Shown: positions 12,831 through 45,931, counted from the whole stretch's first letter. The stretch: DNA of 63,944 nucleotides, filler included, from an uncultured Methanosarcinales archaeon (GCA_964472345.1; 6 parts of 6 records of this genome joined end to end with filler, not necessarily neighbours in it), one strand, 5' to 3'. The notes: generated by a model not told the origin, from the letters alone. A program made the numbers and translations.

Positions 12831-12930
12831 NNNNNNNNNNNNNNNNNNNNNNNNNNNNNNNNNNNNNNNNNNNNTTAATTAATTAANNNNNNNNNNNNNN
12901 NNNNNNNNNNNNNNNNNNNNNNNNNNNNNN
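12831..12930. other. artificial contig linker
   Basis: N-run + TTAATTAATTAA (stops in all frames) + N-run. Confidence 0.98.
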
Positions 12931-13118
12931 TTTTTGAGAAGTTCAAGTATCCTCGCTTCTGGCGGGTTTTCTTCTTTCTCCACTTTGATGATGATTTCGC
13001 CGTCGAAGTCGATCAACCTAATGTGATCTTCTGGCTGCAAGCCCTCATTGTCGCGCATTTCTTTTGGAATCACGATCTGTCCACGTTCCCCCATTTTGAC
13101 ATATCTTTCGATTATCAT
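12931..13118 (-). CDS. AbrB/MazE/SpoVT DNA-binding protein, 3'-truncated
   Basis: KMGERGQIVIPKEMRDNEGL signature. Confidence 0.85.
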
Positions 13119-13201
13119 ATAATATGAAAGTATGAATTAGTATAAAAACTTTTTGGTTTTGTAGCTTAGGAGAAAAGTCCCACGGGAAAGTTTTATTCTT
13201 T

Positions 13202-14320
13202 TTAATACCGCTCCAAAATTCCCTTGATCCGCGCCGCCGTCCTGTCCCAGCTGAACCGCAGCGCGGTCTGGCGCGCATTCACGCTCATGTATCTGCGCAG
13301 CCGCTTGCGCCGAATCAGCTTGCGGAGCTGCAGCACCAGTGTGTACACATTCCCGCGCGGAAACAGCAATCCGTTGTGGTTCTTGATGACATATTCCTTG
13401 AGGAAGCCTACTTTTGTCGTCACCACCGGCACGCCGCAGGCCATGGCCTCGAGCGTTGCCAGCGACGTCGTCTCGGTGAGGCTGGGCATCACGAAGATAT
13501 CCATGGCTTTATAATAGCGCTCCACATCGCGCACGAAGCCCGGGAGCACCGCGTTCTTGGTATTCTCGAAGAGCTTCATCATGTGCTCCGTGCCGCTGCC
13601 CACCGCCAGCAGCGTGATGGGGTAGTCCTGCTGCAGCCGCTGCACGGCCTCGACGAGCACTTCGACGTTCTTCTCGCGCGAGATGCGGCCAACGTAGCCG
13701 ACCACGATTCGGTTCGGCGGGATGCCCAGCGCCTGTTTTGCGGCTGCCTTGTCTTCCGGCGGCCGGAGCAGCTCGCTGTCGACACCAAGGCGTGCGACGT
13801 CCTTTCTGGTGGTGATGCCGAGCTGCGTCAGCTCACGGACCAGGCTCCGGTACGGCACGATCAGCGCATCGCAGGTGTTGTACCACGAGAGCACCAGGCG
13901 CTTGAAGAGGGGTATTGCAGGCCGGCGCAGCAGCCGTGGCAGGTTCTTCTCGTAGAGCTCCCACAGGATCAGGTGGATGTACCAGAGAGCCGTTTTGTGG
14001 TAGTTCTTTGCGTAGTGCAGTGCAAACACGCTGATCAGCGCAGGCCCCTGGATAAAGATGGTGTCTGCTTCTTTTACGGCGTCGCGGATGGTGCGGAGGT
14101 TCCTCAGCGACAGCCGCAGCGACTGGTAGCCTGCGAGCCGGATGATGCGCGAGAGCTTCACTTTCCGCTCGCTGAATGTCCAGCTCACGCCATAGTCAGG
14201 GACGAGCAGGGTGATGGCGAAGTCGTCAGCGATGCGCGGCAGCACTTCATGCAGGAAGCGCATGATCCCATCGACGCGGGGAGCGTACGTGTCGGCCACG
14301 ATGAGGATTTTTTTCTTCAT
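13202..14320 (-). CDS. glycosyltransferase family 4
   Basis: DTYAPRVDG, YVGRISREKN, ETTSLATLEAMACG. Confidence 0.9.
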   Translation of the reverse strand: MKKKILIVADTYAPRVDGIMRFLHEVLPRIADDFAITLLVPDYGVSWTFSERKVKLSRIIRLAGYQSLRLSLRNLRTIRDAVKEADTIFIQGPALISVFALHYAKNYHKTALWYIHLILWELYEKNLPRLLRRPAIPLFKRLVLSWYNTCDALIVPYRSLVRELTQLGITTRKDVARLGVDSELLRPPEDKAAAKQALGIPPNRIVVGYVGRISREKNVEVLVEAVQRLQQDYPITLLAVGSGTEHMMKLFENTKNAVLPGFVRDVERYYKAMDIFVMPSLTETTSLATLEAMACGVPVVTTKVGFLKEYVIKNHNGLLFPRGNVYTLVLQLRKLIRRKRLRRYMSVNARQTALRFSWDRTAARIKGILERY

Positions 14321-14958
14321 TGGATGCGGTAAAAGCGCTCGGCGATTCTCGTCCCGATGTGCAGCCCGTTCTTCAGCTCGCGTGCCAGGATCCCCCAGAG
14401 GAGGACGAGCATCACGGTCCGCTGGCTCTGGAAGTGGCGGATCGCCTGGATCTTTTTCCCGAAGGTATGTGTCGTATCAACATAGAGGCGCGGCGCGCGG
14501 CTTTTTCTGAGCGAAAACGGGTTCCAGATGGAAAACAGGTAAACCTCCGCCTTCACCCGCGCTTCCCGCAGCACCTCAAGCGCGATTACGTGCGTCGCGC
14601 GATGGTCGGGATGCGGATCCTCATTGGTATGAGTGAACACCTTTCGCGGCTTCAGGTTCTTCACCAGCGCAAGGAGCTGCCCCTTGATCGCTGCAAACCC
14701 CTCAGGAAAGCTCCCCTCCTTCAGGTCAAAGAATGTTGAGCGGCAGCCGACGATGCGGTCAGCATGGTGCGTTTCCCGCTCGCGGATATCCTTGGTGAAC
14801 CGCGGCCGCAGCCAGGGATGGCTCTTTTCCCCGTAGGACAATACAATGACCCGCACCCGCTTCCCCTCGGCGGCGTACTGCGCGATCGTCCCGCCTGCAC
14901 CAAGAATGTGGTCGTCCGAATGCGCGCAGATGACAAGGATGGTCTCTTTCTTGGGCAT
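14317..14958 (-). CDS. PIG-L/LmbE family de-N-acetylase
   Basis: AHSDD and DPHPDH motifs; HFQSQ. Confidence 0.9.
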   Translation of the reverse strand: MPKKETILVICAHSDDHILGAGGTIAQYAAEGKRVRVIVLSYGEKSHPWLRPRFTKDIRERETHHADRIVGCRSTFFDLKEGSFPEGFAAIKGQLLALVKNLKPRKVFTHTNEDPHPDHRATHVIALEVLREARVKAEVYLFSIWNPFSLRKSRAPRLYVDTTHTFGKKIQAIRHFQSQRTVMLVLLWGILARELKNGLHIGTRIAERFYRIQ

Positions 14959-15021
14959 TTGAGAAATAATAAGTTTTGGGTTTAAATAGGTTGCGAGGGA
15001 AATTTGTATTTCCAGATACCC

Positions 15022-15450
15022 CTATCTTCTTTTATGTGATTTTCTTATTTTCCAGATGATATAAGAACAAAGAAAAAGCAAGATGATTGCCATAACAAGA
15101 TCTGGTGTATCAAGCTCAATCCCTAAAAGGAAAACCGAGATTAGCATTATTGCGGCTATTATGGATAACAGGACTTCAAATATTCCGACTGAAAAACCTG
15201 GGGCTGTGTCTATTACATCCTTGCCGTCACAATCACCTTTGTATTCTTTCATCTTTTCTTTTAGCATTCTTTTGTAATGGGCCACCTCTTTCTCAGGCAT
15301 TTCCGGGAATACTGGAGCTGTGTGGCCACAACTCTCACACTGGTATTTTGTTGTTGTGCCATATGCCCAGACGACCGGATTAGAGAAGTCGACATGTACA
15401 TCTGTTGAGCCACACTTTGGACAAACCTTAACATGGCGTTCTTTTTTCAT
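15022..15450 (-). CDS. Zn-ribbon membrane protein, AT-rich
   Basis: CPKCGS...CESCG plus two C-terminal TM helices. Confidence 0.7.
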   Translation of the reverse strand: MKKERHVKVCPKCGSTDVHVDFSNPVVWAYGTTTKYQCESCGHTAPVFPEMPEKEVAHYKRMLKEKMKEYKGDCDGKDVIDTAPGFSVGIFEVLLSIIAAIMLISVFLLGIELDTPDLVMAIILLFLCSYIIWKIRKSHKRR

Positions 15451-15615
15451 TTCTTATCCATCGATCATCTGATATTTTAGTCGCGCTCGCGAGCACGCAG
15501 AGCCTGTTGCCGAAAAGAATCTTCTCAAGGAGTTCGGTTGGACTGGTCATTGAAAATATGCGCAGGCCGGGACACGGAAAGTCGCCTTTCCTATCCCCGC
15601 TGCGCTGCTTTGCAA

Positions 15616-15721
15616 TGCGCAGGCCGGGACTTTCGTTTCAATTTCGAACCCGGATAAGCGGCTTGGAAGGCCGCTGTCATCTCCGGCGCGTTTTCACGCG
15701 TAGCCGTTAGACCACCTGCGC
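15616..15721 (-). tRNA. tRNA-Gly(TCC) with two non-canonical introns (D-loop about 15681-15701; T-loop 15630-15642)
   Basis: Acceptor GCGCAGG/CCTGCGC-A; anticodon arm GCGGC-CT-TCC-AA-GCCGC; removing 21+13 nt gives a 72-nt cloverleaf. Confidence 0.9.
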
Positions 15722-15785
15722 ACGCGGATGAATGGATGCCCTTGCTTTATAAAAGTAGCGCGAATTTATAAAGAGCCGCAGGTTC

Positions 15786-16337
15786 ATGCAGCGTATGGGG
15801 TTGGCGTGGAACGATCAGGTTCTTGAGCGCTCGCGCGCCTTCCGCAGCCGCATTCTCCGTCCCGTGGTGCTGCCTCTCAGGCGCATCGGCATCAGCGCAG
15901 CGCACCTCACCGCGCTTTCGTTCCTCACCGGGCTCGCCGCCGTCTGGTTTGCGTTCAGCCAGCATGTCTGGTTCGTCATCTTCGGCATCGCGCACCTGCT
16001 CCTCGACGCACTGGACGGCGTTCTTGCGCGGGAGACGCAGCAGACCAGGAGCGGCGCGTATGCCGACACGATCACGGACAATCTCGTCACCGTGCTGCTG
16101 CTTGGCAAGGGATTTGTCGTCTTCAGCATCCCGTCATTCGGCGCCATCGCGCTTGCGTACCTCGTTCACCAGCTGATCCATCTCCTGTCGCGGATGCGTG
16201 CACCCGTGCTCTTCGGCCGCACGGTCCTGTTCATGGTGTTTTTCCTCCAGTGGTATTTCACGGGCATGCTCTTCATCGCCGCGCTCACCGCGTTCGGGCT
16301 TGGATTGCAGGCGCGGTTTTTTCTCAGAAAGAAATAA
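15786..16337 (+). CDS. CDP-alcohol phosphatidyltransferase
   Basis: DALDGVLAR...GAYADTITD signature. Confidence 0.9.
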   Translation: MQRMGLAWNDQVLERSRAFRSRILRPVVLPLRRIGISAAHLTALSFLTGLAAVWFAFSQHVWFVIFGIAHLLLDALDGVLARETQQTRSGAYADTITDNLVTVLLLGKGFVVFSIPSFGAIALAYLVHQLIHLLSRMRAPVLFGRTVLFMVFFLQWYFTGMLFIAALTAFGLGLQARFFLRKK

Positions 16338-16352
16338 TGGTTCTGTTCACCC

Positions 16353-16892
16353 TTACCACGTCACCTTCTTCAGTCCAAGCAGGTAGCCGAGATGGTTTGT
16401 CGCAGCGTGCAGCGCGGGCGTCAGAAGGACGATTGCAGCAATAACCGAAGCCGGCGGCACATACACGAAAAAAGAAAACGCAAACGCCCCGATCACCAGG
16501 TCGAGCTGATCCCAGGGGAACCACCGCTCCCCGGGTTTCTTGTCCAGCCGCCGCTTCACGAAGCTTTTTGCCAGGTCGCCGACGATTGCTCCGCTCGCCA
16601 GCAAAAAGCCAAGCAACAGCGGCTGCAGTGCATAATCAGCCAGCGACAGCTGCGCAAAGAATGGCACGGCAGAGAGCCGCTGCTGCACCGCAAAGACCGC
16701 AGTTCCCGCAGCCGTAGCGTACAGCAGCCCGCCCCACGTCTTGTGGCTGCCGAAGAGCGGCTTCCCCTTCCACGTGCGGCCGAAATCAACCGGCTGCGGA
16801 AAGACATTGAGCTTGCCAAGCACCACAGGCGCCATGTTCGCCGCATACGCCGGCAGGAAATAGTACAGCGCCTGCAGGATGAAGAATGCCAT
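16353..16892 (-). CDS. carS: CDP-archaeol synthase
   Basis: PAYAANMAP, PVDFG, GSHKTWGG, GDLAKSFVKRRL, DQLD. Confidence 0.88.
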   Translation of the reverse strand: MAFFILQALYYFLPAYAANMAPVVLGKLNVFPQPVDFGRTWKGKPLFGSHKTWGGLLYATAAGTAVFAVQQRLSAVPFFAQLSLADYALQPLLLGFLLASGAIVGDLAKSFVKRRLDKKPGERWFPWDQLDLVIGAFAFSFFVYVPPASVIAAIVLLTPALHAATNHLGYLLGLKKVTW

Positions 16893-16915
16893 GGTCTCTC
16901 CAGAGTCCCAGCATG

Positions 16916-16991
16916 TCAAAAACCGCGGGTCTACTGACCTGCGGTTTTTGAGCACACTGGTTTTCCACCGGTAAACACACTGGTGGAAAAC
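16916..16991. promoter_or_regulatory. two strong hairpins between the TATA box and the carS start
   Basis: 16916-16931/16936-16951 (15 of 16 matching) and 16960-16972/16979-16991; TTTATAAA at 16998-17005. Confidence 0.6.
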
Positions 16992-17017
16992 GCAGTGTTT
17001 ATAAAACTTCACGCTTC

Positions 17018-18115
17018 GTGGCTCACATGCAGCTCCGCAATGCAGGCCAGTACCTCCTCCTTGCGCTCTTCACGCTGCTTCTTGTGTTCATCCTCTCCCT
17101 CATTGATATCCAGCAGCTCTTCGATAATCTCCGCAGCGCCCGCCCCGTTTTTGTGCTCCTCGCTGCGGCGAGCATGCTCCTTTTTTACCTCCCCTGGTCG
17201 TTGAACTACATGCTCTTCTTCCGCATTCCTTTCTTCAGTGCCCTGCTGGTCATCCTCAGCGGCGAGTTCTTCAATGCCATCTCCCCCGGGATCAATGTCG
17301 GAGGAGAGCCCGTCAAGGGCCATCTGCTCTCCAGGCTCCAGCAAAAGCCGTTCTCCGAGCAATTCTCAGCCGTCATCTCCCTCCGGCTGCTTGATGCGCT
17401 CTGGTACGCGCTCTTCAGCGCCCTTTCCCTGATCATCAGCGTCTTCTTCCTGCGCCTGCCGGCGAACATCGGCCTCCTCGCACAGGCCATCATTTTCATC
17501 ATCGTCTTTGTCTTTCTCATCGCTGCGCTGCGCCGGAGCCTCGCCCTGCGGAACATCATTGACCTCTTCACCGAAAGGCTCCTGCGCTGGCTCCGCTTCC
17601 TCTCTGCGCGCGCCATGCCCGGCTTCGCCTATGCGCAGCGCTCGGTCAATCTCGCGCCGCTGCTCGAAGCGAAAGCCTACGTCCATGGGAAATTCAGCCG
17701 CATGGCCGCAGCCGCACGGCAGTTCAGCGCCGACATCAGGCGCGCCTTGCAGCGCATCTTCCTTGCCAGGCATGTCTTTCTCCCTCTCTTCCTGCTCACG
17801 GGGGCAGGCTGGCTTTTCATCTTCCTGAAGACCTATTTCATCTTCCTCGCATTTGGCCAGCCCGTAAGCTTCCCTAGTGCCATCATCGCGTGGATGATCC
17901 CCTCGCTGCTCGGCACATTGCTCTTCGTTCCCGGCGGCTTCGGCGTTACGGAAACGGCGATGATTGCGCTCCTCTACGCATGGGGCATCCCTCCCGAGGC
18001 CGCCGCCGCAATCGCCCTCGTTGATCGCGCCCTGTTCTACGCCGCTGAGCTTGGCGCCGGATCGCTTGCGTTGCTCGTGATGCAGCTTCGGCTGAAGAAA
18101 CAGAAAACTACATAA
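17018..18115 (+). CDS. lysylphosphatidylglycerol-synthase-TM/flippase-like (UPF0104) membrane protein
   Basis: NAISPG..VGGEPVK and VPGGFGVTE motifs; multiple TM segments. Confidence 0.85.
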   Translation: MAHMQLRNAGQYLLLALFTLLLVFILSLIDIQQLFDNLRSARPVFVLLAAASMLLFYLPWSLNYMLFFRIPFFSALLVILSGEFFNAISPGINVGGEPVKGHLLSRLQQKPFSEQFSAVISLRLLDALWYALFSALSLIISVFFLRLPANIGLLAQAIIFIIVFVFLIAALRRSLALRNIIDLFTERLLRWLRFLSARAMPGFAYAQRSVNLAPLLEAKAYVHGKFSRMAAAARQFSADIRRALQRIFLARHVFLPLFLLTGAGWLFIFLKTYFIFLAFGQPVSFPSAIIAWMIPSLLGTLLFVPGGFGVTETAMIALLYAWGIPPEAAAAIALVDRALFYAAELGAGSLALLVMQLRLKKQKTT

Positions 18116-18138
18116 AAGCAAGCCATTTTCCTGCCCCC

Positions 18139-18456
18139 ATGCCCGACCTCCCCGAGCAATCAATCACGCGCGCACAGCGCGACTTCGAAGCCTTCCGGAA
18201 GAAACTTACATTCACGGCAGACGACCAGGAGCAGCTCATCTGGGACGCCACCGACCTGTTGGGTTGGTACGCAGCACGCCCCGGCGCTGAGCTTGAGGGG
18301 CTTATTGGGCGGATGATCGACTTCGGCGAGAAGAAGCAGTGGAGCATGGGCGCAACACAATTGCAGTTTACGAAGTTGAAGGCGAAGCGCCGAGCCACAG
18401 GACGTCCAGCACTCCCTTCCCATACTTCTGCAGCTTCACCGGGCCAATCCCCCTGA
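18139..18456 (+). CDS. small hypothetical protein whose 3' end overlaps the convergent helicase
   Basis: Fills the gap between genes; protein-like composition over the first 80 aa or so. Confidence 0.45.
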   Translation: MPDLPEQSITRAQRDFEAFRKKLTFTADDQEQLIWDATDLLGWYAARPGAELEGLIGRMIDFGEKKQWSMGATQLQFTKLKAKRRATGRPALPSHTSAASPGQSP

Positions 18457-20461
18457 TCTGCTCAAGTTCGGCGGCCGTCCCGGGCTTCCGCGCAGCAATC
18501 TCGAGCAGTGTGTCATTGGAAAGGATCACATACGCCGGCACGCCAGTCTCCTGCGCAAGCCGGTTCCGCCACTGCTTCAGCCGGTCAAACGCATCCTCCG
18601 CGATGGGAGCGCTTCCCGTGCCCTTCTCCATCAGCGCCTGCATCTCCGGCGTCACAAAACGCGTCAGGTTTCCGGCGTGCAGCAGGTAAAGCTGCTCCTT
18701 TGCCCTGCTGATGGCGACGTAAAACAGGCGCCGTTCTTCCTCTTCACGGTCATAATCAAGCTCCTTCACAAGGTCGATGATGGGGTGATCGCTCGCCTTG
18801 CAGGGGAAGTAAAGGCTGCTGCATCCTACGACAAGCACGAGCGCGGCTTCCATCCCTTTGATCGCGTGCACCGTCGCCAGCGTCACCTCATCCTGCTTCG
18901 CGACGCGCTCGCTCCGCTGGTCTTCGCTTCGCACAAGATGCGGGATTCCCGCAGCCCGCAACGCAGCCTGCAGCTCGTCCAGCTGCCGGTTCGTGCGCGC
19001 CAGGACGAAGATCTCATTCCGCGCCGCGCTGCTTTCCAGGATTGTCTGCATGACAAACGCCCGCTCCCCCTCCTCATCGCCGCAGGGGACCAGCACCGCC
19101 TTCCCTCCGTCCTGCGCCGCTTCAATGTCGGGGAGCCGCAGCGTGCGAATCGCTGCGTTCATCAGCTCCACGAGCTCCTTCCCTGAACGGTAGTTCCTGG
19201 TCAGATGCACCACCTCGCTGCTGCCGAACCGCTGCGGAAATTCCAGAAGGAACTGCACGGTTGAGCCGCGCCACCCGAAGATTGACTGCCGGGGATCGCC
19301 GACACAGAACAGGTTCGGCGCACCAAGCGCTTCCAGCAGCTTCACCTGCTGCGCATTCACGTCCTGGTACTCGTCAACCAGAACGTGCTCATACCGCGGC
19401 ATGGTTTCGGGATGCTCCGCAAACAGCCGCAGTGCGTCCAGCAGCTGGTCAGCATAGTCTCGCAGCCCCTGCTGCCCCATCGCTTCCTGCATCGCAGTGC
19501 AGATCCGGTGCACGAGCTGCGCATTCGCACGGTCAGGCGCTGCAATGCCCTGCTTCTGCGAAAAATCGGCAAGCCGTTTCCCCGTTGTCTTGCAGTGCTC
19601 CAGCACGCTGAAACAGTCATAGACAAAGCGGTAGAACAGCTCCTCATCCGTCTTGCCGCGCCGCTGCGCGAATGAATAGAACCTCAGCAGCACCTCATCA
19701 GCGCGCCCGCCGAGCTTCTCGATGGATTCCCGCAGCAGCCGCACCCGCTCCCCAAACGACAGCACCCGCACCCCTTTTCCATACGCAAGGCCCGTATGCC
19801 GCAGCAGCGCCTTCTCGCAGAAGGAATTGAACGTCTCCACCTGCACCTGGGCGATGCCGGCCGCCGCAAGCCGCTCCTCCATCTCCTTCCGTGCCTTCCG
19901 GGTGAAGGTGATCGCCAGGATGCGCTCCGGATTGATGGAGCGGAACCTCACCAGGAACTCGATGCGCTTGGTCAGCGTCAGCGTCTTCCCGCTTCCCGCC
20001 CCCGCAACGCAGAGGATGCGTTCCGCAGCTGAGGTGATCGCTTTCTTTTGCTCATCGGTATAATCGCGGAGAAAGAAATCAAACGCCGCAAACAGCTTTC
20101 GGTCCTGCTCGGTGATCGCCGCCGCGGGCAGCACGCGCCCTTGCACGCTCGTTGCCGCTAGCCGGGGCTCTGCAAGCTCTGCCTTCCCTGCAGCAGTCAG
20201 CGCATAGACCTTGACATACTGCTTGTTTGGCAGCGCGGCCTGCTCAAGAAGCCGGTTCGCCGCGAGCCGCTCGATCATCGCCTCGATCTCAGCTGCATCA
20301 TAGCCGCTCAGCGCCCCGAACGCCGCAAGCCGGTGCAGCCTGCTTCGCGTGACCATCTCGCGCTCGTTCCCCCGCAGAACATCCACAAGCAGCCGCCTCC
20401 CGACGCCGAAGGGCAGCTCCTGCAGCGCGCGCAGCACCGCAAGGTAGTCATCAGCCGCCAT
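18368..20461 (-). CDS. UvrD/Rep (SF1) helicase with N-terminal RQC-like winged helix and C-terminal HRDC
   Basis: AGAGSGKT, VDEYQD, VGDPRQSIFGWRG, TVHAIKGME, EEERRLFYVAISRAK; HRDC LKQWR..VPAYVIL..GIGPVKLQKYG. Confidence 0.9.
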   Translation of the reverse strand: MAADDYLAVLRALQELPFGVGRRLLVDVLRGNEREMVTRSRLHRLAAFGALSGYDAAEIEAMIERLAANRLLEQAALPNKQYVKVYALTAAGKAELAEPRLAATSVQGRVLPAAAITEQDRKLFAAFDFFLRDYTDEQKKAITSAAERILCVAGAGSGKTLTLTKRIEFLVRFRSINPERILAITFTRKARKEMEERLAAAGIAQVQVETFNSFCEKALLRHTGLAYGKGVRVLSFGERVRLLRESIEKLGGRADEVLLRFYSFAQRRGKTDEELFYRFVYDCFSVLEHCKTTGKRLADFSQKQGIAAPDRANAQLVHRICTAMQEAMGQQGLRDYADQLLDALRLFAEHPETMPRYEHVLVDEYQDVNAQQVKLLEALGAPNLFCVGDPRQSIFGWRGSTVQFLLEFPQRFGSSEVVHLTRNYRSGKELVELMNAAIRTLRLPDIEAAQDGGKAVLVPCGDEEGERAFVMQTILESSAARNEIFVLARTNRQLDELQAALRAAGIPHLVRSEDQRSERVAKQDEVTLATVHAIKGMEAALVLVVGCSSLYFPCKASDHPIIDLVKELDYDREEEERRLFYVAISRAKEQLYLLHAGNLTRFVTPEMQALMEKGTGSAPIAEDAFDRLKQWRNRLAQETGVPAYVILSNDTLLEIAARKPGTAAELEQIRGIGPVKLQKYGKGVLDVLWLGASPSTS

Positions 20462-20463
20462 AC

Positions 20464-21057
20464 TCAGAAGACGCGTCCCCTCTCCAGCGCCTCAAAGGTG
20501 AATCTGCGCTTCACGCCCCCGGCATCCTCCGCAATGACATGCCTCCCGAGCGCCCGCACCGTGTACGTACTCCCCTTCAATATAAACTGCTTCCCAACCT
20601 GCGCGGGAAACTGCTTGAACAGCACCGTGACGCGGTGCACCTCTTTTCCCGACAGGCGGTCGCGCGTGAACAGCCGCGACGTCACGCGCAGCAGTCCCCC
20701 AAACCGTGCCTGGAGCTGCCTGCCGAGCTTCCGCGCGAACCGGAAATCGTCAACGCGCAGGTCAACGCCGTGCTTCAGCCACCGCTCATTGCTGATTCGG
20801 ATCCCTGCCCGCCCCAACGTCGCAGCAGCGAACGCATGCACCTCTTTCTCAACGTTCCGCAGCTGGATCGTCGCCTCGAAGTAGCCCGCGTGCTTCCCCT
20901 GCCGCTTTGCTGCACGCCCGTGCGCTGATCCGGGCTTTGGCTGCGCCTTCTTCCTGCGCGAGGGACCGGCCTCCGGTGGGTGCAGCTGGGCATGGCACGC
21001 AGCGCACAGGAACTCCTGATGAAGCTCCTTCTTCCCGCATCTGACGCAGAAGTCCAT
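20464..21057 (-). CDS. NMD3-like ribosome biogenesis protein (short form)
   Basis: FCVRCG..LCAAC; YFEATIQLR; GVDL; RVTVL. Confidence 0.75.
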   Translation of the reverse strand: MDFCVRCGKKELHQEFLCAACHAQLHPPEAGPSRRKKAQPKPGSAHGRAAKRQGKHAGYFEATIQLRNVEKEVHAFAAATLGRAGIRISNERWLKHGVDLRVDDFRFARKLGRQLQARFGGLLRVTSRLFTRDRLSGKEVHRVTVLFKQFPAQVGKQFILKGSTYTVRALGRHVIAEDAGGVKRRFTFEALERGRVF

Positions 21058-21155
21058 ACGGCAAAAACATCCGCGTGCTTGATAAAGGTAACGGTGCGTT
21101 TGGCTGCACTCCTGGAGCTATTGCATTGCGTGCACAAACGAGCGAATGCCTAATT

Positions 21156-21617
21156 TCAAGCAAAAAAGCAGGCGCGCTGGTGTTGAACTGCGTCTTGGAG
21201 CAGCAAAATAGCAGGTAATACTACGCTTATATCATCATCTAACGAAAAAGAAAACCGGCATACTTCTTCACACCCCCCCACAAATCTCTCAAGCAGGCCC
21301 GGTTGAACCGTCTTCAGGGGCTTCTTAGCAAACGCAATCTTGATGACATCCCCTGAGGATTGAATATCATAATGTCTCTGGCGGTACTTAACGAACAGCT
21401 CAAGCGCTCTTCTGAAAGAAGGATCATGGTTTGCATCTATTTCAAGATGATTATACCTCATTTTCCCATCCTCCTCTTCTTTTGCATACTGGAAAACGGA
21501 GGAGAGAAGGTCGTACCATTCTAAGTTGCTACATCTTCCCCAGGAGGAGTCTGCCGGCATGAACGTTCGAGCAACGAGATAACGCTCTCCGGAGTCTTGG
21601 CGGGTGCATGTGCTCAA
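21156..21617 (-). CDS. lower-GC hypothetical protein; frame stays open to about 21820 without an in-frame ATG (possible frameshift near 21795)
   Basis: Manual translation upstream of the TTG start stays open; the nearby ATGs are out of frame. Confidence 0.5.
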   Translation of the reverse strand: MSTCTRQDSGERYLVARTFMPADSSWGRCSNLEWYDLLSSVFQYAKEEEDGKMRYNHLEIDANHDPSFRRALELFVKYRQRHYDIQSSGDVIKIAFAKKPLKTVQPGLLERFVGGCEEVCRFSFSLDDDISVVLPAILLLQDAVQHQRACFFA

Positions 21618-21864
21618 AAACGCAACGAGTGGCGCTTTTTCGTCCCGAACTAAAATGAAAGCATCATCAATCCCCTCCTCAAGCTTGCCGGGGACAGCGA
21701 TGCCGGCTCTTTGTGCAACACCGCGAACCTGCTCAGCTACTCCTTCGTAGGCTTCCTTATTCTTAATATTACTATACAGGCAGTTTCGACTCCCATTCCC
21801 ATGGGGAACCGCCTCCCATTTTTAAACTTTTCTATATGTAACCACTAAAAAGTAACTAATTGAC

Positions 21865-22500
21865 CTATTTCTTCACCATCCTCCACAGCCCCACTTTCAC
21901 GTAATACGCTCTCCGCCGGTGCCACGGCAGCTGCTGCGGAATGCGGAAATCATACGCCCAGCGGTCCGTGATCATAAACCTATGGTCGCGCGCCACCGCC
22001 TCGACAAACGCAGCAGTGCTGATCTTGTGCATGCTGTACACTGTTTTCCCGACGGTAAACGCCTGCTCCAGGAACCTCTTGTCATGGTGCCTAACCTTCG
22101 TCCCGAACGGCGGGTTCTGCAGCACCACATCCACGTTTGTCGTAAAATCAGCGATGTCCGCGCAGATAAACTCACTTTTCCCGATGTCATAAGCCTGCTC
22201 AAGCGCATCAACGTTCTTGCGTGCCAGCTCAAGCGCCTGCTGCTCGGCATCAACGAAAAATACCCGCTTCGCGCCCATCAGCAGCGCACCGCAGCCAAGG
22301 ATGCCAGGCCCGCACGCCGCATCTAAGCTCACTTTTCCCGCCAGATCAGGCTTAAGTGCCGCCTGCCAGATCCAGTCTGCCGCAATCTCGCTCGGAGTCG
22401 CATACTGCTCAAGCCTCACATCGACTTTTTCAAACCCTTTCAGCCTGCTCAGCTCAACTGCAAGCCGCTTCTTCGTCCAGCCTGAACTCTCACTTTTCAT
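21865..22500 (-). CDS. METTL5-like N6-adenine RNA methyltransferase
   Basis: LEQYATP, DAACGPG SAM motif, NPPFG, YSMHK. Confidence 0.9.
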   Translation of the reverse strand: MKSESSGWTKKRLAVELSRLKGFEKVDVRLEQYATPSEIAADWIWQAALKPDLAGKVSLDAACGPGILGCGALLMGAKRVFFVDAEQQALELARKNVDALEQAYDIGKSEFICADIADFTTNVDVVLQNPPFGTKVRHHDKRFLEQAFTVGKTVYSMHKISTAAFVEAVARDHRFMITDRWAYDFRIPQQLPWHRRRAYYVKVGLWRMVKK

Positions 22501-22758
22501 ATTTTTCCGCTTGCCGGACAGTGGTTTCTGCTTCCTCAAAGCCGCCAAAAGCGCCGGCAACCCTCACTTTACACCACATCTCTGGGCTCATCTGCGGCAA
22601 CATGGTGCGCCAACCCTATCAAAGCCCCATGCACCCATCCTGATCCCAAACAGCCTGCCATTTATAAACCATTCCTTCAACCCCCTCGCAGGCCTCCGCC
22701 AAAACGTTCGCAAAACCGCTTTCCACAAACTCCGCAAATCTCACCGCAGGATAAGCTC

Positions 22759-22910
22759 AAGTCCCAAAGTAGTCCCAGGACCGACTGAGACAGGACCATA
22801 GAAGTCCTACTATATTCCCAAAATATACAAAAAATAAGAGGAAAGCGTTCCCTAAATAGTCCCAATATATTCCCAAGTTGTTCCCAACATAGTCCCAGCA
22901 AGTCCCAGCG
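22759..22910 (+). repeat. helically phased 11-bp repeat array (core KTCCCA)
   Basis: TCCCA-like cores at 22762, 22773, 22805, 22816, 22849, 22860, 22871, 22882, 22893, 22903. Confidence 0.85.
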
Positions 22911-22955
22911 AACGTCACCAAAAGGTTTATTAACGTCCCGCGCATCACAGCTCCC

Positions 22956-23615
22956 ATGGGGCTTTTCGCAGGAGGGCGCGACTGGGACAAGATCGACCGC
23001 AGCCTCAAGGGCGCGTTCGCCGGCGTCAGGCAGGACACCGCCACGCTCTACGAGTGGATCCAGTTTCTTCACAGGAAACTTGAGCGCCAGCAGCAGACCA
23101 TTATCGCCCTCCAGGACAAGTTCGACACGCACCTGCTCACCCCGCAGGACATCCGGCAGCTGCTCGAGAGCCACTTCGCTATCAGGAGCGCCCAGCAGCT
23201 CGATCATCGTGTCCGGCAGCTCGACCGGAAAGTCGGCGTGCTCGCGGCATTGCACGACGGCCAGCACACGCGCCTCAGCGAGCTGCATAAGCGCCTCGAT
23301 TCGCTCCATACCGTCGCTGAGAAGAAAAGCGCATCGCTCAAGGAGCGCATCATAAGGAAGCTCACCCGCAACAGCAAAGCCTATGCCAAGAACGTGATCC
23401 TCAGCTACATCGAGAAATACCGCGAAGTCTCCGCCACGCAGCTCAAGGAAATGCTCGTCGAGGAGCAGCGGCTCTGCTCAAAAAGCAGCCTCTACCGCCT
23501 GCTGCAGGAGTTGGAAGACACCCAAAAAGTGAGCGTTGTCCACGACAGCAAGCAGAAAACCTACTTCAGCCGCTCCATAAAAGCCCCAAAAGAGCACATC
23601 TTCGACGAGAAATAA
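22956..23615 (+). CDS. coiled-coil plus C-terminal winged-helix protein
   Basis: Heptad-rich N-terminal half; ATQLKEMLVEEQRLCSKSSLYRLLQELE HTH followed by wing strands; TATA-like TTTATTAA near 22926. Confidence 0.75.
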   Translation: MGLFAGGRDWDKIDRSLKGAFAGVRQDTATLYEWIQFLHRKLERQQQTIIALQDKFDTHLLTPQDIRQLLESHFAIRSAQQLDHRVRQLDRKVGVLAALHDGQHTRLSELHKRLDSLHTVAEKKSASLKERIIRKLTRNSKAYAKNVILSYIEKYREVSATQLKEMLVEEQRLCSKSSLYRLLQELEDTQKVSVVHDSKQKTYFSRSIKAPKEHIFDEK

Positions 23616-23624
23616 GCTCAAACC

Positions 23625-23847
23625 GGCGTTATTGAAAAGTTCGCCAAGATGGCCAGTGTGCGTGTCGGGCTCGGCACGACACCCAGGAGGACGCTGCACG
23701 TTCTCCGTGCCGGCGTGAGCAGGATGCCTGCCAGGCTCTAGCTCGACTCGAGTCCGAAGGACGATTAACTCGAGCGCCTCGGACTCGGTACGAGGCTCAG
23801 GAAAGCGCACTTTTCCGCGTAGCGAACGGGAACTTTTCAATAATGCG
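23625..23847. mobile_element. MITE-like element: 18-bp imperfect TIRs and 8-bp target duplication CTCAAACC
   Basis: Left end GGCGTTATTGAAAAGTTC; right end reverse complement CGCATTATTGAAAAGTTC; CTCAAACC at 23617-23624 and 23848-23855. Confidence 0.8.
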
Positions 23848-23940
23848 CTCAAACCACAACCTTTTTAAACACCGCAGCGTTCCTCTCAACTGCTTCGGGG
23901 GGTTGGTGTGAAGCAGGGTTCATGAAGCGGAGGTAGCTCT

Positions 23941-24417
23941 ATGACCATCTTCAAGCGCTTATTTGGAGGCATGCTTGCCCAGTTCCGCGACGAGCTCGAT
24001 GAGCACCGTGCGGCAATCAACGAGAATACCGACGAGATCCAGTCCAATTATGCCTATGCGCAGGAGCTCCATCAGAAGCTCAGCCAGCTCGCGGAGCGCC
24101 TCGGCCATATCGAGCTGCTTCTGGAAGGCCAGGTCAAGCGCTTCGAAGTCCATCCCCTCACCCACCCGGAAAAGCAGGTCTTCCTCGTTCTCTACACTGA
24201 GGAAAAGCCCCTCACCTATGCCGATATCACAGCGCAGACTGGCTACACTGAATCGCTCGTGCAGCATCACATAACCAGTCTCATCGAAAAGGGCATCCCT
24301 ATTATCAAATCCTACTTCAACGGCACACCATTTATGAAGCTCAATCCCGAGTTCAAAGAGCTTCAGGCCAAGGAGAACCTCCTGAACCTGTCACTAAAAT
24401 CTTTTGTTGAAGATTAA
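23941..24417 (+). CDS. coiled-coil plus winged-helix protein
   Basis: Coiled-coil N-terminus; LTHPEKQVFLVLY..LTYADIT..TESLVQHHITSLIEKGIPI wHTH; GGAGGT RBS. Confidence 0.8.
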   Translation: MTIFKRLFGGMLAQFRDELDEHRAAINENTDEIQSNYAYAQELHQKLSQLAERLGHIELLLEGQVKRFEVHPLTHPEKQVFLVLYTEEKPLTYADITAQTGYTESLVQHHITSLIEKGIPIIKSYFNGTPFMKLNPEFKELQAKENLLNLSLKSFVED

Positions 24418-24549
24418 AAGTTTTATTCAACAAATTAAATAAATATTTCAAGCTAAAACAAAAACTTTTAGTCTTAATCTAATCTAAATTAGTAATAAAC
24501 TATTTAATCAAAAATTAAAAGTTTTATGCGAAAACTATAAATACTTAAA

Positions 24550-24577
24550 AATTCGTATAATATACATTAGACGAATG
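24550..24577. other. dif-like tyrosine recombinase site
   Basis: AATTCGTATAA-TATACA-TTAGACGAATG: 11-6-11 imperfect palindrome (9 of 11), TAA-N6-TTA core, 33 bp upstream of the Xer-family gene. Confidence 0.75.
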
Positions 24578-24610
24578 TTTTATGCGGGGAAATAAAAAAG
24601 AGGCAAAACC

Positions 24611-25429
24611 ATGCTTGAGGACCTGCTCACAGAGCTAAAACTGCGGGGTCTGAGCCCGAGGACGGTCAAGACATATGTCTACCACAACAAGCGATTTCTT
24701 GACTTCATCAAAAAACAACCCGCGGACGTAACCCAGCAAGACATAAAACTCTACTTGGCAGAACACACCGACACTTCAAGTCTTGCAACCGTTTCACTGA
24801 TGAAAAGCGCCCTCCGGTTCTATTACGATGAAATTCTCCAGAAGAACTACCTTTCGTTCAAAAGTCCCAAGCCAGCGCGAAAGCTGCCCATAGTCCTGAC
24901 GGAAGAAGAAGTCCTTCGGCTGATCGATGCCGCCCCAACCCGGAAAAGCAGCCTCTTGCTGCAGATGCTCTATGGTTCGGGATTACGGGTAAGCGAATGC
25001 GCAAGTCTCAAGGTGGTCGACATCGAACTCGATCAAAAGATAGGGTGGGTCCGTCGCGGCAAGGGTGCCAAAGACAGGATGATCATCATTTCCGATGGTA
25101 TCATCAAGGAATTGCGCAAATATCTTGAAAAGTATGAAGGGGCCTACCTCTTCTCCAAAGAGAAGCCGCTCTCACCACGGAGCGTCCAGCAGATGCTCAA
25201 GCGGGTGGCTGAAAAGGCAGGCATCAGGAAAGACATCTCACCCCATACCCTCCGCCACAGCTTTGCCACCCATCTGCTCCAGCATGGAACGGACGTGCGG
25301 GTCATCCAGGAGCTGCTTGGCCACTCCCATCTCGAAACCACACAGATCTACACCCAAGTGACGCAGGAGCAGATAAGGAGAGTAAGAAGTCCGCTCGATA
25401 CGATCAGGAACAAGAAGTCCAATGGATAG
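24611..25429 (+). CDS. xerA: XerA/XerD-family tyrosine recombinase
   Basis: LYGSGLRVSE, GKGAKDR, HTLRHSFATHLL, IQELLGHSHLETTQIYT; N-terminal SAM-like domain. Confidence 0.88.
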   Translation: MLEDLLTELKLRGLSPRTVKTYVYHNKRFLDFIKKQPADVTQQDIKLYLAEHTDTSSLATVSLMKSALRFYYDEILQKNYLSFKSPKPARKLPIVLTEEEVLRLIDAAPTRKSSLLLQMLYGSGLRVSECASLKVVDIELDQKIGWVRRGKGAKDRMIIISDGIIKELRKYLEKYEGAYLFSKEKPLSPRSVQQMLKRVAEKAGIRKDISPHTLRHSFATHLLQHGTDVRVIQELLGHSHLETTQIYTQVTQEQIRRVRSPLDTIRNKKSNG

Positions 25430-25532
25430 CCCCCCAAGGGCAAGCCTAAAAATAAAGTCTTAAATTTTTGATAGTGTATTATTCCCTTATGGATTCTTTT
25501 TATGCTGTTTAGTGCGCGGCTGCGCAAGAACC

Positions 25533-25561
25533 CTGCGGGCTGAGCGAAGCGAAGCCCGCAG
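25533..25561. repeat. hairpin capped by GAGCGAAGCGA
   Basis: CTGCGGGCT-GAGCGAAGCGA-AGCCCGCAG; the same 13-mer lies on the minus strand at 25851-25863. Confidence 0.7.
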
Positions 25562-25713
25562 TAGTTCACTCCCGCAGGACATAAAAATGGAGTGAGAGCG
25601 CAGCGGGGCAAGCGACCGAAAGGAGCGCAGAGTTTTCTTACTGCCGAAAATCAGATAGGTGCCGTAGTTTTTACTTACTTTAACATCAATAACTGCGAAG
25701 CAGACAATAGTTT

Positions 25714-25813
25714 NNNNNNNNNNNNNNNNNNNNNNNNNNNNNNNNNNNNNNNNNNNNTTAATTAATTAANNNNNNNNNNNNNNNNNNNNNNNNNNNNNNN
25801 NNNNNNNNNNNNN
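25714..25813. other. artificial contig linker
   Basis: N-run/TTAATTAATTAA/N-run. Confidence 0.98.
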
Positions 25814-25863: not shown

Positions 25864-25935
25864 AGCCCTTAGAGGGATTTGAACCCCCGGCCTACTGCTT
25901 ACGAAGCAGTCGCTCTGCCACTGAGCTATAAGGGC
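25864..25935 (-). tRNA. tRNA-Thr(CGT)
   Basis: GCCCTTA acceptor, TAGCTCAGTGGCAGAGC D arm, ACTGC-TT-CGT-AA-GCAGT anticodon arm, GGTTCAAATCC T arm. Confidence 0.93.
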
Positions 25936-37915: not shown

Positions 37916-38015
37916 NNNNNNNNNNNNNNNNNNNNNNNNNNNNNNNNNNNNNNNNNNNNTTAATTAATTAANNNNNNNNNNNNNNNNNNNNNNNNNNNNN
38001 NNNNNNNNNNNNNNN
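37916..38015. other. artificial contig linker
   Basis: N-run/TTAATTAATTAA/N-run. Confidence 0.98.
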
Positions 38016-42975: not shown

Positions 42976-43635
42976 ATGATCATCTACAACCCCCATAATG
43001 AAAAGCTCATTGGTGAACGCCTGAAAGAAGCCGAACAGCTTTTAGCCCAAATTCCTGCCAAATACTGCTTTATCACCGGTTCTTTCCTCTCCAGAGAGAA
43101 GTACAAAGACATTGATATTTTTGTCGTTACCCGATCTAAAAAAGAGATTACTCTTAAAAATAGAAAAGTAAAAATAACGACTATCGACTTCAACGATCTT
43201 TATTCCCTTTTTTACCACTCTGTTTCCAAAAGCTGTATCGCGAAGGCTCTCCTTCCGCAGAGACCGCTCAAAGTTACCCTTTCAGATTATTGGCAGGTCA
43301 TTAACGAAGCTATCCCCACGTTGCTCAATGAAAAAGACAGATTCCACAAACATGTCCGTTTTCTTATCCTCTACACAGAATATTTCAAAACGAATGAGGT
43401 ACTTGACACCCACCAACTTAATGAAAAGATTAATTCTTATAGTGATTACCGCAAGATAATGGACTATGTTAAACGAGAACTGCCCAGCATAATCAATAGA
43501 TATGCAAAACCATCCTATGTCAAACGCTTCTTTTATACCCAAGCAGCTCATTATAAAGAACTGCGAGAATATGCCGCGCAAAGATTTTTATACAATTTAA
43601 CCCATGAAGTGGCCAGGGGAACAGCACATGGTTGA
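42976..43635 (+). CDS. minimal-nucleotidyltransferase-like protein, AT-rich
   Basis: FITGSFL...KDIDIFVV (GS...DxD). Confidence 0.75.
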   Translation: MIIYNPHNEKLIGERLKEAEQLLAQIPAKYCFITGSFLSREKYKDIDIFVVTRSKKEITLKNRKVKITTIDFNDLYSLFYHSVSKSCIAKALLPQRPLKVTLSDYWQVINEAIPTLLNEKDRFHKHVRFLILYTEYFKTNEVLDTHQLNEKINSYSDYRKIMDYVKRELPSIINRYAKPSYVKRFFYTQAAHYKELREYAAQRFLYNLTHEVARGTAHG

Positions 43636-44005
43636 TCCCGACGAATTCAAAAAGAAGATAGAAACAAGCATTACCCAAGACTACAAGGTGGAATTCCTCG
43701 GGAAGAATTTCGATCAGATTGTTCATCTTCTTACTGAGAGCAAAACTGAGAAAATTTACCGGTGGATCAAGGATATTGTTGAGAGAAAAATCGAACCGAT
43801 TTCTATTGGCTCGAAGAAGCCATACAAAGAGTGGATAGTAAGTGAGCTCCTTACCTTTCGTTATCCGTTCAGCATCGGTAATACTGAGTATCAGATTCTT
43901 TTCGTGAAAGTGAAAAATTCTGTCTACATTGAGTTTCACCTGGGAGATCACAACTATCATGATAAAGTCAGAAAAGACCTTGATTTGAAGAAAAGTAACT
44001 ATTAA
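43628..44005 (+). CDS. putative RelE-like toxin or hypothetical protein
   Basis: Overlaps the upstream gene; C-terminal IEFHLGDHNYHD resembles the RelE/YafQ-like GxHxxY end. Confidence 0.5.
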   Translation: MVDPDEFKKKIETSITQDYKVEFLGKNFDQIVHLLTESKTEKIYRWIKDIVERKIEPISIGSKKPYKEWIVSELLTFRYPFSIGNTEYQILFVKVKNSVYIEFHLGDHNYHDKVRKDLDLKKSNY

Positions 44006-44306
44006 TGCCCCCCCGTCTTACGAACGATAAACCTACCTTAAACCAGATGCTGTGGTGCCAGTCTCTCTGCACGGCAAGAAATAAATTGCTCACTACGCCC
44101 GCATCCCGCTGCGCTCTCCTCCTTTTAGTCGTCGGGACGCCTAACGGGGGTTATATAAAATTTTCTGTCGTTGTAAATACTACGCTAACGCTAAAAACTA
44201 TGAACCTTAAGATTGACGCTTACGTATGGGCTAACTAAAACTCTATAAGTGGGGGCTAACTTTGGCGAAAGATTTATATACATAATATGATGTACCTAGA
44301 TACATA

Positions 44307-44882
44307 ATGAAAACTGAACTTAAAATAATCAAGTATCTTATCGAAAACAATAAGCCAAGAACTATTAGAGAGATTGCTCAGCAGATTAAAGCAGATTACA
44401 AAATAACTTATATTGCAATACAAAGACTCATTGAAAAGAAAGCCATTAATGTTCAAACTGTAGGAAAAAGCTCTTTATGCAGATTAGATGAAAAGTATTA
44501 TGGTATCGAGATTTATGAAGCAGAAAACGAAAGAAAAGAATATATCCTCAAAAATAGCAATATTAACCAACTCTACAAAGAGATTATGTCTAAAGTAAAA
44601 ACGAGTTCTTTTATTTTGCTTTTATTTGGCTCTTATGCAAAAGGCAAACAGACTAAAACTTCCGATATAGATCTTATGTTTATCTCCAACGAGAAAGATT
44701 TTGAAAGTAAAATTTCAAATGTTCTTTCCTTACTTCCTTTAAAAACACACGCGTTAGTCTTTACAGAAGAAGAATTTGTCAGAATGAAAGACTCAAAAAA
44801 GTCGAATGTAATCCAAGAAGCAATAGAAAGTGATATACCATTGTATGGAATTGAAGCTTATTATCGGTTGAAAAATGCTTGA
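44307..44882 (+). CDS. HTH-MNT nucleotidyltransferase antitoxin
   Basis: TIREIAQQI HTH; LFGSYAKGKQTKTSDIDL. Confidence 0.88.
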   Translation: MKTELKIIKYLIENNKPRTIREIAQQIKADYKITYIAIQRLIEKKAINVQTVGKSSLCRLDEKYYGIEIYEAENERKEYILKNSNINQLYKEIMSKVKTSSFILLLFGSYAKGKQTKTSDIDLMFISNEKDFESKISNVLSLLPLKTHALVFTEEEFVRMKDSKKSNVIQEAIESDIPLYGIEAYYRLKNA

Positions 44883-45417: not shown

Positions 45418-45418
45418 G

Positions 45419-45880: not shown

Positions 45881-45931
45881 CCTGCGGAGAGGATCACCCA
45901 TTGGCCAACACCGGCAGCCAGAAACAAACTA

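Follow-up and report, generated by a model that had tools for sequence, protein, structure and literature searches.

A phased TCCCA array, two undescribed winged-helix families and a predicted XerA/dif site at a conserved locus of Woesearchaeota

We analysed a 63,944-nucleotide stretch of archaeal DNA (the window), which joins six contigs of one metagenome-assembled genome (G000; 1.26 Mb, 1,264,057 bases in 120 contigs, 56.9% GC), and we focus here on a locus that lies entirely on one of these contigs, C36. A first-pass annotation of the window had pointed to five elements on one contig and one strand, and all five were recovered: an 11-bp phased array of TCCCA boxes, two genes whose products combine a coiled coil with a winged helix (here named wH1 and wH2), an AT-rich tract, a dif-like palindrome and a gene of the Xer recombinase family, xerA (Table 1). 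The component systems are of known kinds, namely Xer/dif and an iteron- or centromere-like array next to the gene of its presumed binder, and they are combined here in a new way, together with two protein families that have not been described. The literature searched on Xer-dif and iterons in Woesearchaeota and other DPANN archaea contained no description of this locus.

Table 1 Features of the locus and linkers of the window; positions are counted from the first base of the window.
Feature	Position	Strand	Remarks
Linkers	12831-12930, 25714-25813, 37916-38015, 50042-50141, 62166-62265		gene neighbourhood across linkers is artificial
Small S-adenosylmethionine-dependent methyltransferase	21865..22560	-	MTS domain, NPPF motif; Pfam PF05175, E 8e-10; divergent from wH1
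TCCCA array	22759..22910	+	10 direct boxes (8 exact KTCCCA, 2 degenerate), 11-bp phase
Transcription factor B recognition element (BRE)/TATA-like box of wH1	22922..22934	+	AAAGGTTTATTAA; ~22 bp 5' of ATG; putative promoter
wH1	22956..23615	+	219 amino acids (aa); helical N-terminus, C-terminal winged helix
Miniature inverted-repeat transposable element (MITE) insertion	23616..23855	.	inverted repeat; element 23625-23846 plus flanking duplication
wH2	23941..24417	+	158 aa; long N-terminal helix, ArsR/MarR-like winged helix, short C-terminal helix
AT-rich tract	24418..24610	+	193 bp; 20.7% GC vs genome 56.9%; holds dif-like site
dif-like site	24550..24577	.	11-6-11; AATTCGTATAA-TATACA-TTAGACGAATG; 9/11 arm positions symmetric; intergenic
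xerA	24611..25429	+	272-aa tyrosine recombinase; N-terminal SAM-like core-binding domain, catalytic domain

The exact KTCCCA boxes of the array lie on the plus strand at 22761, 22772, 22815, 22859, 22870, 22881, 22892 and 22902, and the degenerate boxes at 22804 (GTCCTA) and 22848 (TTCCCT) keep the same register. From 22804 on, the boxes are spaced by multiples of 11 bp, with the last box off by 1, and Tandem Repeats Finder reported periods of 11 and 22. A palindrome, GTCCCAGGAC, is embedded in the array at 22772-22781. Genome-wide, TCCCA occurs at a density of 0.73 per kb per strand; the array, which holds eight copies, is the sole 160-bp window with at least five on the same strand in 1,264,057 bases. 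It ends ~18 bp 5' of the TATA-like box of wH1, and relatives carry a AAAAGnTTTATTAA-type box at the matching position upstream of wH1. Because this box lies so close to the start codon, the sequence suggests that wH1 may be transcribed without a leader or with a short one. When the arrays of different species were compared, the consensus of the repeat unit was W-Y-A-K-TCCCA-A-W.

wH1 and wH2 represent two widespread families, and neither protein falls into any family described so far. At E<=1e-3 a profile of wH1 retrieved 638 cluster representatives, of which 225 reached E<=1e-30, and a word search found at least 257 relatives of wH2. Searches of Pfam and NCBIfam returned weak, generic winged-helix matches only (for wH1, the FUR-type winged helix of Pfam at E 1.3e-5), profile searches against the PDB returned only coiled-coil noise or generic helix-turn-helix matches, and the ESM Atlas returned only uncharacterised clusters from Woesearchaeota and Nanobdellota. 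AlphaFold2 models, computed from alignments of relatives, place helices at residues 10-58 and 63-155 of wH1 and its winged helix at 157-205 (mean predicted local distance difference test score, pLDDT, 75.8); in wH2 they place a helix at residues 3-62 and the winged helix at 75-134 (pLDDT 88.4). The first helix of wH1 bears a conserved LKxSFxxVKxD...W motif and is followed by a variable helical hairpin or coiled coil. The third helix of its winged helix is almost invariant (CSKSSxYR), like the TCCCA core of the array. In wH2, the N-terminal helix contains an invariant HLxAINENTxEI motif and the C-terminal helix, FKELQAKEN, is conserved. Structure comparison by Foldseek and VIA-align, which barely probed the N-terminal helices, gave matches confined to the generic winged-helix domains. 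The best VIA-align match of wH2 was the ArsR structure 6j05_B (Z 10.0, root-mean-square deviation (rmsd) 2.4 over 82 residues), and the fold of wH1 matched cullin WHB (Z 10.7, rmsd 2.1 over 76), Rpa2, PadR, Fur and Hop2.

Several relationships of these two proteins were considered, and none was upheld. The N-termini of wH1 and wH2 had been noted as loosely similar, and this likeness does not amount to homology: hhalign gave a probability of 26% over 20 columns, and the BLASTP match (E 0.004) covers the coiled coil only. With no significant profile-profile similarity, paralogy of wH1 and wH2 within one family is not supported. Neither are they ScpA or ScpB, since PF02616 and PF04079 gave no match and the canonical proteins are encoded elsewhere in G000 (ScpA on C44, 56.7 bits; ScpB on C2, 112 bits), which also encodes Smc. 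Finally, wH2 is not a TrmB/TrmBL2 protein, because its score with PF01978 (15.3 bits) falls below the cut-off of 25.6 and its domains come in the opposite order; some distant relatives of wH2 do bear a precomputed PF01978 label.

The AT-rich tract between wH2 and xerA has only four counterparts in the 1.26 Mb genome. It contains three promoter-like boxes of the AAAGTTTTATKC type, at 24417, 24518 and 24574, and the dif-like site with its core TTCGTATAA-TATACA-TTAGACGAA (24552-24575). The site has the hallmarks given for archaeal dif in PMC2958812, namely two imperfect 11-bp inverted arms, a 6-bp spacer and a non-coding location. It abuts a TATA-like box and lies 33 bp 5' of the xerA start codon. 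Scored against the half-site TTCGTATAA, it reaches 17/18 and is the sole site in the genome at >=15/18. The recombinase itself matched PF00589 (4.5e-45) and PF13495 (1.7e-15) in Pfam, and the XerA equivalog model NF040815 of NCBIfam along residues 4-258 (263.5 bits vs a cut-off of 220, E 2.1e-78). Residues R126, K151/K154, H212, R215, H238 and Y247, which we take to be the catalytic R-K-H-R-H-Y set, are invariant in 25 orthologues, and xerA was the only tyrosine recombinase gene that tblastn found in the genome. The four other tracts with a 190-bp window at <=22% GC lie at C7:14141-14367, C12:1823-2103, C60:6057-6249 and C65:2474-2713.

We assessed conservation in two samples. Sample 1 consists of 40 relatives from the same order, with the unpublished genome G008 counted in, and allowed 17 loci to be compared. 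Sample 2 consists of 80 species loci collected through a wH2 alignment, with 251 of 261 pattern matches encoding a wH2 relative. Since both come from the same species-representative collection and overlap, their counts are not to be summed. In sample 1, wH1 is present in 26 of 41 genomes (G000 included) and adjoins wH2 in 16 of the 17 loci, the 17th being cut by a contig end; the two genes share a strand in 13 loci and are divergent in 3. A tyrosine recombinase gene lies within 1 kb of wH2 in eight loci and within 6 kb in two more. Boxes of the form ATTCCCA/AGTCCCA, with an 11-bp period that continues up to the TATA-like box of wH1, occur in 12 of 15 wH1 upstream regions, and the three regions without them belong to the same three loci in which wH1 and wH2 are divergent. 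The methyltransferase gene, the conserved neighbour on the left of the block, adjoins wH1 or wH2 in 12 of the 17 loci, where it is divergently oriented, and in most of the 80 loci of sample 2. Three genes that lie further left in the source, encoding a UvrD-like helicase, an NMD3-like protein and a 153-aa open reading frame, were found in none of the 17 loci, and the conserved block is therefore specifically that of methyltransferase, wH1, wH2 and recombinase.

The larger sample ties the array to wH1. In 44 of the 80 loci, wH1 immediately precedes wH2 on its strand, and 38 of these 44 have at least 5 (up to 16) coding-strand TCCCA boxes in the 400 bp 5' of wH1; three of the six exceptions have <300 bp of upstream sequence. 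None of the wH1-less loci (0/36) has more than three boxes in any 160 bp. The array thus co-occurs only with wH1, always immediately 5' of it and on its coding strand, and wH2 stands without either of them in 36 of the 80 loci. Successive boxes are exactly 11 bp apart in 139 of 269 cases; among the 262 intervals of <=66 bp, a multiple of 11 is found 196 times. The 80 loci also conserve, 5' of wH2, its BRE/TATA-like box (~23858-23873 in the source). Of the 44 loci with wH1, 36 have a tyrosine recombinase gene no more than 2 kb from wH2 (28 of the XerA type, 8 short and comprising the catalytic domain only), vs 7 of the 36 loci without wH1; among the loci that lack one at this distance, the sequence past wH2 is shorter than 2 kb in four and three cases, respectively. 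In a quick maximum-likelihood phylogeny of wH2, the presence of wH1 requires 3 changes vs a shuffled mean of 26.8, with none of 500 shuffles as low, and the tree falls into essentially one clade with wH1 (44 of 46 rows) and one without it (33 of 35). These data indicate vertical inheritance rather than spread by a mobile element, because so few changes are needed. Across Woesearchaeota, homologues of wH1 and wH2 thus show the expected linkage, both with one another and with an upstream 11-bp array, a dif-like site and a tyrosine recombinase.

The dif-like site recurs in relatives as well. Nine of 30 xerA loci have a TTCGTATAA-N6-TTATACGAA site scoring >=14/18 within 250 bp upstream of the start, and sites of this form lie 25-40 bp 5' of the xerA start both here and across several families of relatives. 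The palindrome 5' of xerA is a perfect 11-6-11 in one relative, and the spacer measures 7 bp in another. In many convergent loci the right arm runs directly into a TTTTTATA box, so that bound XerA would cover its own BRE/TATA. Across the 80 loci (860,879 bases) we found 16 sites at >=15/18, of which 8 fall in the 300 bp that follow wH2 or precede xerA, a zone that makes up 3.9% of the bases (binomial 5e-8, a figure that ignores the relatedness of the loci); six more lie 0.4-1.3 kb upstream of xerA. In G003, G005 and G008, which belong to the family of the source, the dif-like site lies 145-205 bp after wH2, with xerA 5-6 kb away behind a lipase-like gene in G003 and G005 and no xerA within the stretch taken from G008. 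Since the site is kept beside wH2 when xerA is distant, it is not merely an operator of xerA and is tied to this chromosomal position.

Two other arrangements were observed at this end of the locus. In G003 and G005 (loci L013 and L014), xerA, the gene for the lipase-like protein (a 719-809-aa alpha/beta-hydrolase) and hypothetical genes are inverted relative to the source, and one breakpoint coincides with the dif-like site, which hints at recombination there. Short tyrosine recombinases (200-220 aa, catalytic domain only) replace XerA beside wH2 in L015, L020, L022 and L025 and in 11 of the 80 loci of sample 2 (L071-L150); one form of this type has 285 aa and a C-terminal zinc ribbon. The short recombinases of L022 and L025 have upstream palindromes of their own, which differ from the dif-like site (AACGCAACA...TGTTGCGTT type).

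The xerA end of the locus resembles known single-recombinase systems. XerS/difSL and XerH/difH consist of one recombinase with its site immediately upstream of the gene, and they depend on FtsK. The layout of one recombinase with a site 5' of its own gene is shared here; however, the XerS model scores 86.9 bits against a cut-off of 267, the enzyme being an XerA equivalog, and no partner of the FtsK kind is known at this locus. There is also a likeness to the archaeal XerA/dif systems of Thermococcales and Sulfolobales, for which PMC2958812 describes a single XerA and a 28-bp site with AT-rich flanks that occurs once per chromosome: here too, a lone XerA accompanies a single 28-bp site of the 11-6-11 form in AT-rich surroundings. 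That source places dif away from xerA in Thermococcales, whereas the dif-like site here lies at the xerA promoter or beside wH2, and it reports terminus location and recombination as demonstrated, whereas the site here is predicted from sequence. Haloarchaea provide a match in layout, since in Haloferax and Halobacterium dif is described as preceding the xerA operon (PMC11840125), just as the dif-like element here is directly upstream of xerA.

For the wH1/wH2 end, a precedent is found in Thermococcus kodakarensis, where, according to PMC11840125, an Smc-dependent domain boundary arises from the TrmBL2-bound sequence that flanks dif rather than from Xer/dif itself; the same source reports that domain boundaries colocalise with dif in several euryarchaea. 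TrmBL2 is thus an example of a winged-helix protein that acts at dif independently of Xer (PMC11840125), and Smc-ScpAB is encoded here as well. TrmBL2 is described as an abundant, genome-wide nucleoid protein with AT-rich motifs and many sites, whereas we find a single phased array with a dedicated adjacent gene. In TrmBL2 the winged helix comes first and the coiled coil after, an order that is reversed in wH1 and wH2. A boundary at the Woesearchaeota locus would be a prediction from its sequence.

We tentatively favour a reading in which this single-copy, vertically inherited locus of Woesearchaeota comprises two adjoining units, an XerA/dif system for dimer resolution and, beside it, a landmark formed by wH1 and wH2 at the array. 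In the first unit, the lone XerA would act on the 28-bp 11-6-11 site at its own promoter and thereby resolve chromosome dimers; it probably represses its own gene as well, because the right arm abuts the TATA box. In the second unit, wH1 is most likely the protein that binds the array. It would occupy the 8-16 TCCCA boxes head to tail, one per helical turn and all on the same face and strand of the DNA, with lateral contacts through its helical hairpin that would yield a single, polar, filament-like complex. OmpR/PhoB-type winged helices bind direct repeats in a comparable way, and the array unit can be divided into a conserved 7-bp box and a 4-bp A/T-rich spacer, which gives a head-to-tail period of 11 bp; unlike OmpR/PhoB, wH1 and wH2 have no receiver domain and no sequence or family relation to them (Pfam, NCBIfam), and the repeats per site are far more numerous. 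The nucleoprotein complex on the array, large and polar, would be present once per chromosome, ~1.7 kb from dif, and would feed back on the transcription of wH1. wH2 would be a second, more widespread winged-helix protein, expressed from its own promoter between array and dif. The array complex could mark the dif region for chromosome organisation, for example by stalling or positioning Smc-ScpAB as TrmBL2 does in Thermococcus. Only the persistent linkage of the two units suggests that they work together. The layout, uniqueness, conservation and co-occurrence of the elements are observed, and the identity of the array binder, the autoregulation and any coupling to Xer or SMC are inferred. A co-fold prediction for XerA and wH2 scored 0.00, which is evidence neither way.

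A number of observations weigh against this reading. wH2 occurs without wH1, array or nearby recombinase in at least 23 loci, and since the distribution of wH1 reflects about three changes and essentially two clades, its association with the recombinase amounts to few independent events. Five nearly complete relatives showed no array, and their dif-like matches (<=3 mismatches) were no better than a reversed-pattern control. Both winged-helix domains are generic, and some of the fold matches of wH1, such as cullin WHB and Rpa2, are protein-binding winged helices. The co-occurrence of wH1 and array would fit an array that regulates wH1 through wH2 or another factor as well as it fits an array bound by wH1, and an ordinary upstream activating sequence would likewise account for an array that lies wholly 5' of the TATA box. 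The GC skew of the 306 kb contig that bears the locus in one relative is noise, with no extremum at the locus. In the closed genome G024, which has a derived arrangement without the dif-like site, the locus is separated from the two Orc1 genes by 25% and 43% of the circle and is neither next to nor opposite either of them. In G000 and nine relatives, Orc1/Cdc6 genes were found on other contigs or at least ~140 kb away, never adjacent to the locus.

The first-pass annotation had seen in the locus a segregation and resolution module that organises the origin or terminus. The conserved linkage of its elements and their vertical inheritance support part of this proposal, and C36 carries, as had been said, neither an Orc1 nor a ParA gene; the only ParA/MinD-type ATPase gene found in the genome is on C78, away from the locus. 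Neither homology of wH1 and wH2 nor a position at an origin or terminus found support, and the same holds for a protein-level link to XerA. Oligomerisation on the array and a coupling of resolution to segregation, which the annotation also proposed, may be features of the locus.

The strongest competitor is that wH1 and wH2 are ordinary transcription factors, which we regard as a serious, if somewhat unlikely, explanation. The array would then be a long upstream activating or repressing sequence for wH1 (perhaps also for the methyltransferase), the adjacency to xerA/dif would be inherited synteny, and the dif-like site would be chiefly an operator of xerA or a dif in its own right. The array does lie directly 5' of the BRE/TATA-like box of wH1, where archaeal activators bind. 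Some relatives have extra or inverted boxes between TATA and ATG, as is typical of autorepression (inverted TCCCA copies occur in 16 of the 44 wH1 loci), the fold matches of wH2 are of the MarR/ArsR type, wH1 and wH2 have separate promoters, and the association of wH1 with a recombinase boils down to about two clades. On the other side, 8-16 strictly phased direct repeats at one locus, with no second cluster in 1.26 Mb, are atypical of a regulator. Inherited synteny would also have to accommodate a block of methyltransferase, wH1, wH2 and dif/recombinase that is kept order-wide although its flanks have lost synteny even inside the family, and the 11 of 80 loci in which XerA has been replaced, in the same place, by another tyrosine recombinase with its own palindrome.

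The favoured reading of two adjoining units can be extended to a more specific and, in our view, unlikely form, in which the wH1-coated array together with wH2 would be a lineage-specific organiser of the terminus or dif region. As a single, polar barrier next to dif, it would stall or unload Smc-ScpAB or arrest replication forks, and so control the place and time of dimer resolution by XerA. TrmBL2 boundaries, MatP/matS and RTP/Ter would be functional parallels of such an organiser, which would differ from them in using two undescribed families and a dedicated, iteron-like array.

It is improbable that the array is a centromere-like partition site, with wH1 (alone or with wH2) as the centromere-binding protein and an unlinked motor or SMC (structural maintenance of chromosomes) complex driving segregation, on the model of ParR/parC, TubR/tubC or ParB/parS. 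In ParR/parC of plasmid R1 and in TubR/tubC, short direct repeats about one helical turn apart lie by the promoter of the binder gene, where they are coated cooperatively and mediate autoregulation, and TubR is a winged-helix protein. The 11-bp direct repeats by the promoter of an adjacent, presumed binder gene agree with this pattern, notably with parC of R1; the array is present in single copy per genome, and the ATPase on C78 and Smc-ScpAB could supply the motor. On the other hand, the array is chromosomal, single-copy and vertically inherited, wH1 has a long N-terminal helical hairpin, and its fold is a winged helix and not the ribbon-helix-helix of ParR. The neighbours are the methyltransferase and xerA, and the loci examined contained no linked gene for a nucleoside triphosphatase, such as a cytomotive one of the ParM or TubZ kind, with the queries used, none of which was aimed at those two families. 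Centromeres are also usually near origins, and there is no Orc1 gene nearby.

Equally little credence is given to an iteron-type origin. Iteron Rep initiators such as RepA of pPS10, RepE of F and pi of R6K are winged-helix proteins that bind direct repeats, with inverted copies at their own promoter and an AT-rich region. By analogy, the array would consist of iterons, wH1 or wH2, or both, would be the initiator (compare plasmid Rep and Sulfolobus WhiP), the AT-rich tract would unwind and XerA/dif would resolve multimers, the whole being a captured replicon that serves as a secondary origin. Direct repeats with some inverted copies at the promoter of a winged-helix gene, and an exceptional AT-rich tract nearby (20.7% GC, one of five), are real likenesses. 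However, the Rep_3 type needs two winged-helix domains and the models of wH1 and wH2 have one each, and no Rep_3, Orc1 or Cdt1-type signature was found in either protein (Pfam/NCBIfam at E<=0.1, PDB profiles). The repeat unit measures 11 bp and not ~22 bp, the AT-rich tract lies 1.5 kb from the array with two genes between, two Orc1/Cdc6 genes are retained elsewhere in the genomes, no GC-skew signal marks the locus, and the block has been inherited vertically.

An integrated plasmid or virus remnant, with xer as integrase, the palindrome as att site and the winged-helix genes as regulators of the element, is very improbable despite a tyrosine recombinase beside a short palindrome, a contig break 284 bp past xerA, and repeats and a MITE close by, since the recombinase scores above the XerA equivalog cut-off and is the sole one in the genome, no other mobile-element genes are present, the chromosomal neighbours are the same order-wide, and, where the first-pass annotation had named att boundaries and patchy occurrence as the signs of such an element, the palindrome has no second copy and the distribution is clade-wise.

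We are aware of no experimental knowledge of how the small chromosomes of DPANN archaea are organised, segregated or resolved. The locus supplies a predicted dif and XerA for Woesearchaeota, two widespread protein families and an order-wide phased array. If, as in the favoured reading, the array complex acts on SMC or Xer, the link between dif and domain boundaries known from euryarchaea would be met here by a dedicated, site-specific device. If the array is merely an autoregulatory operator, it would still be an example of phased cooperative binding that is unusually extreme for archaeal transcription.

The spacer between wH1 and wH2 measures 325 bp in the source, compared with ~95-240 bp in relatives, and consists mostly of the MITE. 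The element is 222 bp long, with terminal inverted repeats of 17-19 bp, and is flanked on both sides by a 9-bp direct duplication, GCTCAAACC (23616-23624 and 23847-23855). Because it falls between the stop codon of wH1 and the promoter box of wH2, both genes are intact, and it is no part of the conserved module. The possibility that this structured spacer is an RNA gene was rejected in favour of the MITE; across the whole window, the Rfam scan found tRNA only. The MITE family occupies 20 places on 20 contigs of G000, several of them with 9-bp flanking duplications. Its members measure ~130-223 bp, end in 19-bp inverted repeats (GGCGTTATTGAAAAGTTCC) and have duplicated 9 bp of the target.

To the left of the array, the true start of the methyltransferase is probably an internal ATG near 22500, as its homologues begin to align at residue 18-29. 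To the right, C36 (window 12931-25713) stops 284 bp past xerA. The window joins C35, C36, C37, C38, C39 and C118 with N44-TTAATTAATTAA-N44 linkers between them, and tRNA-Thr (25864-25935) lies on the next contig and hence is no neighbour of xerA. The end of C36 (25651-25705) is a 55-mer identical to C16:1-55, after which the sequences diverge, as at a branch of the assembly graph. About 12 kb into C16 there is a gene orthologous (38% identity) to the lipase-like one found after xerA in two relatives, and C16 may therefore be the true continuation of C36. Between xerA and this end lies a GC-rich palindromic repeat of ~64 bp (25507-25570) with copies on C8 (two), C29, C54 and C75 (two), which could be a repetitive extragenic palindrome (REP)-like element or a terminator family.

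The source names of wH2 relatives agree with the assumption, made at the outset, that the host belongs to the Woesearchaeota/Nanoarchaeota (DPANN). Records whose wH2 clusters inside Woesearchaeota are often titled 'uncultured Methanosarcinales archaeon' (loci L071-L150), and these titles look like mislabels by automatic taxonomy. Elsewhere in the window, contig C38 contains a low-GC island (43001-46000; 0.35-0.39 vs ~0.57 for the genome), which is possibly acquired DNA.

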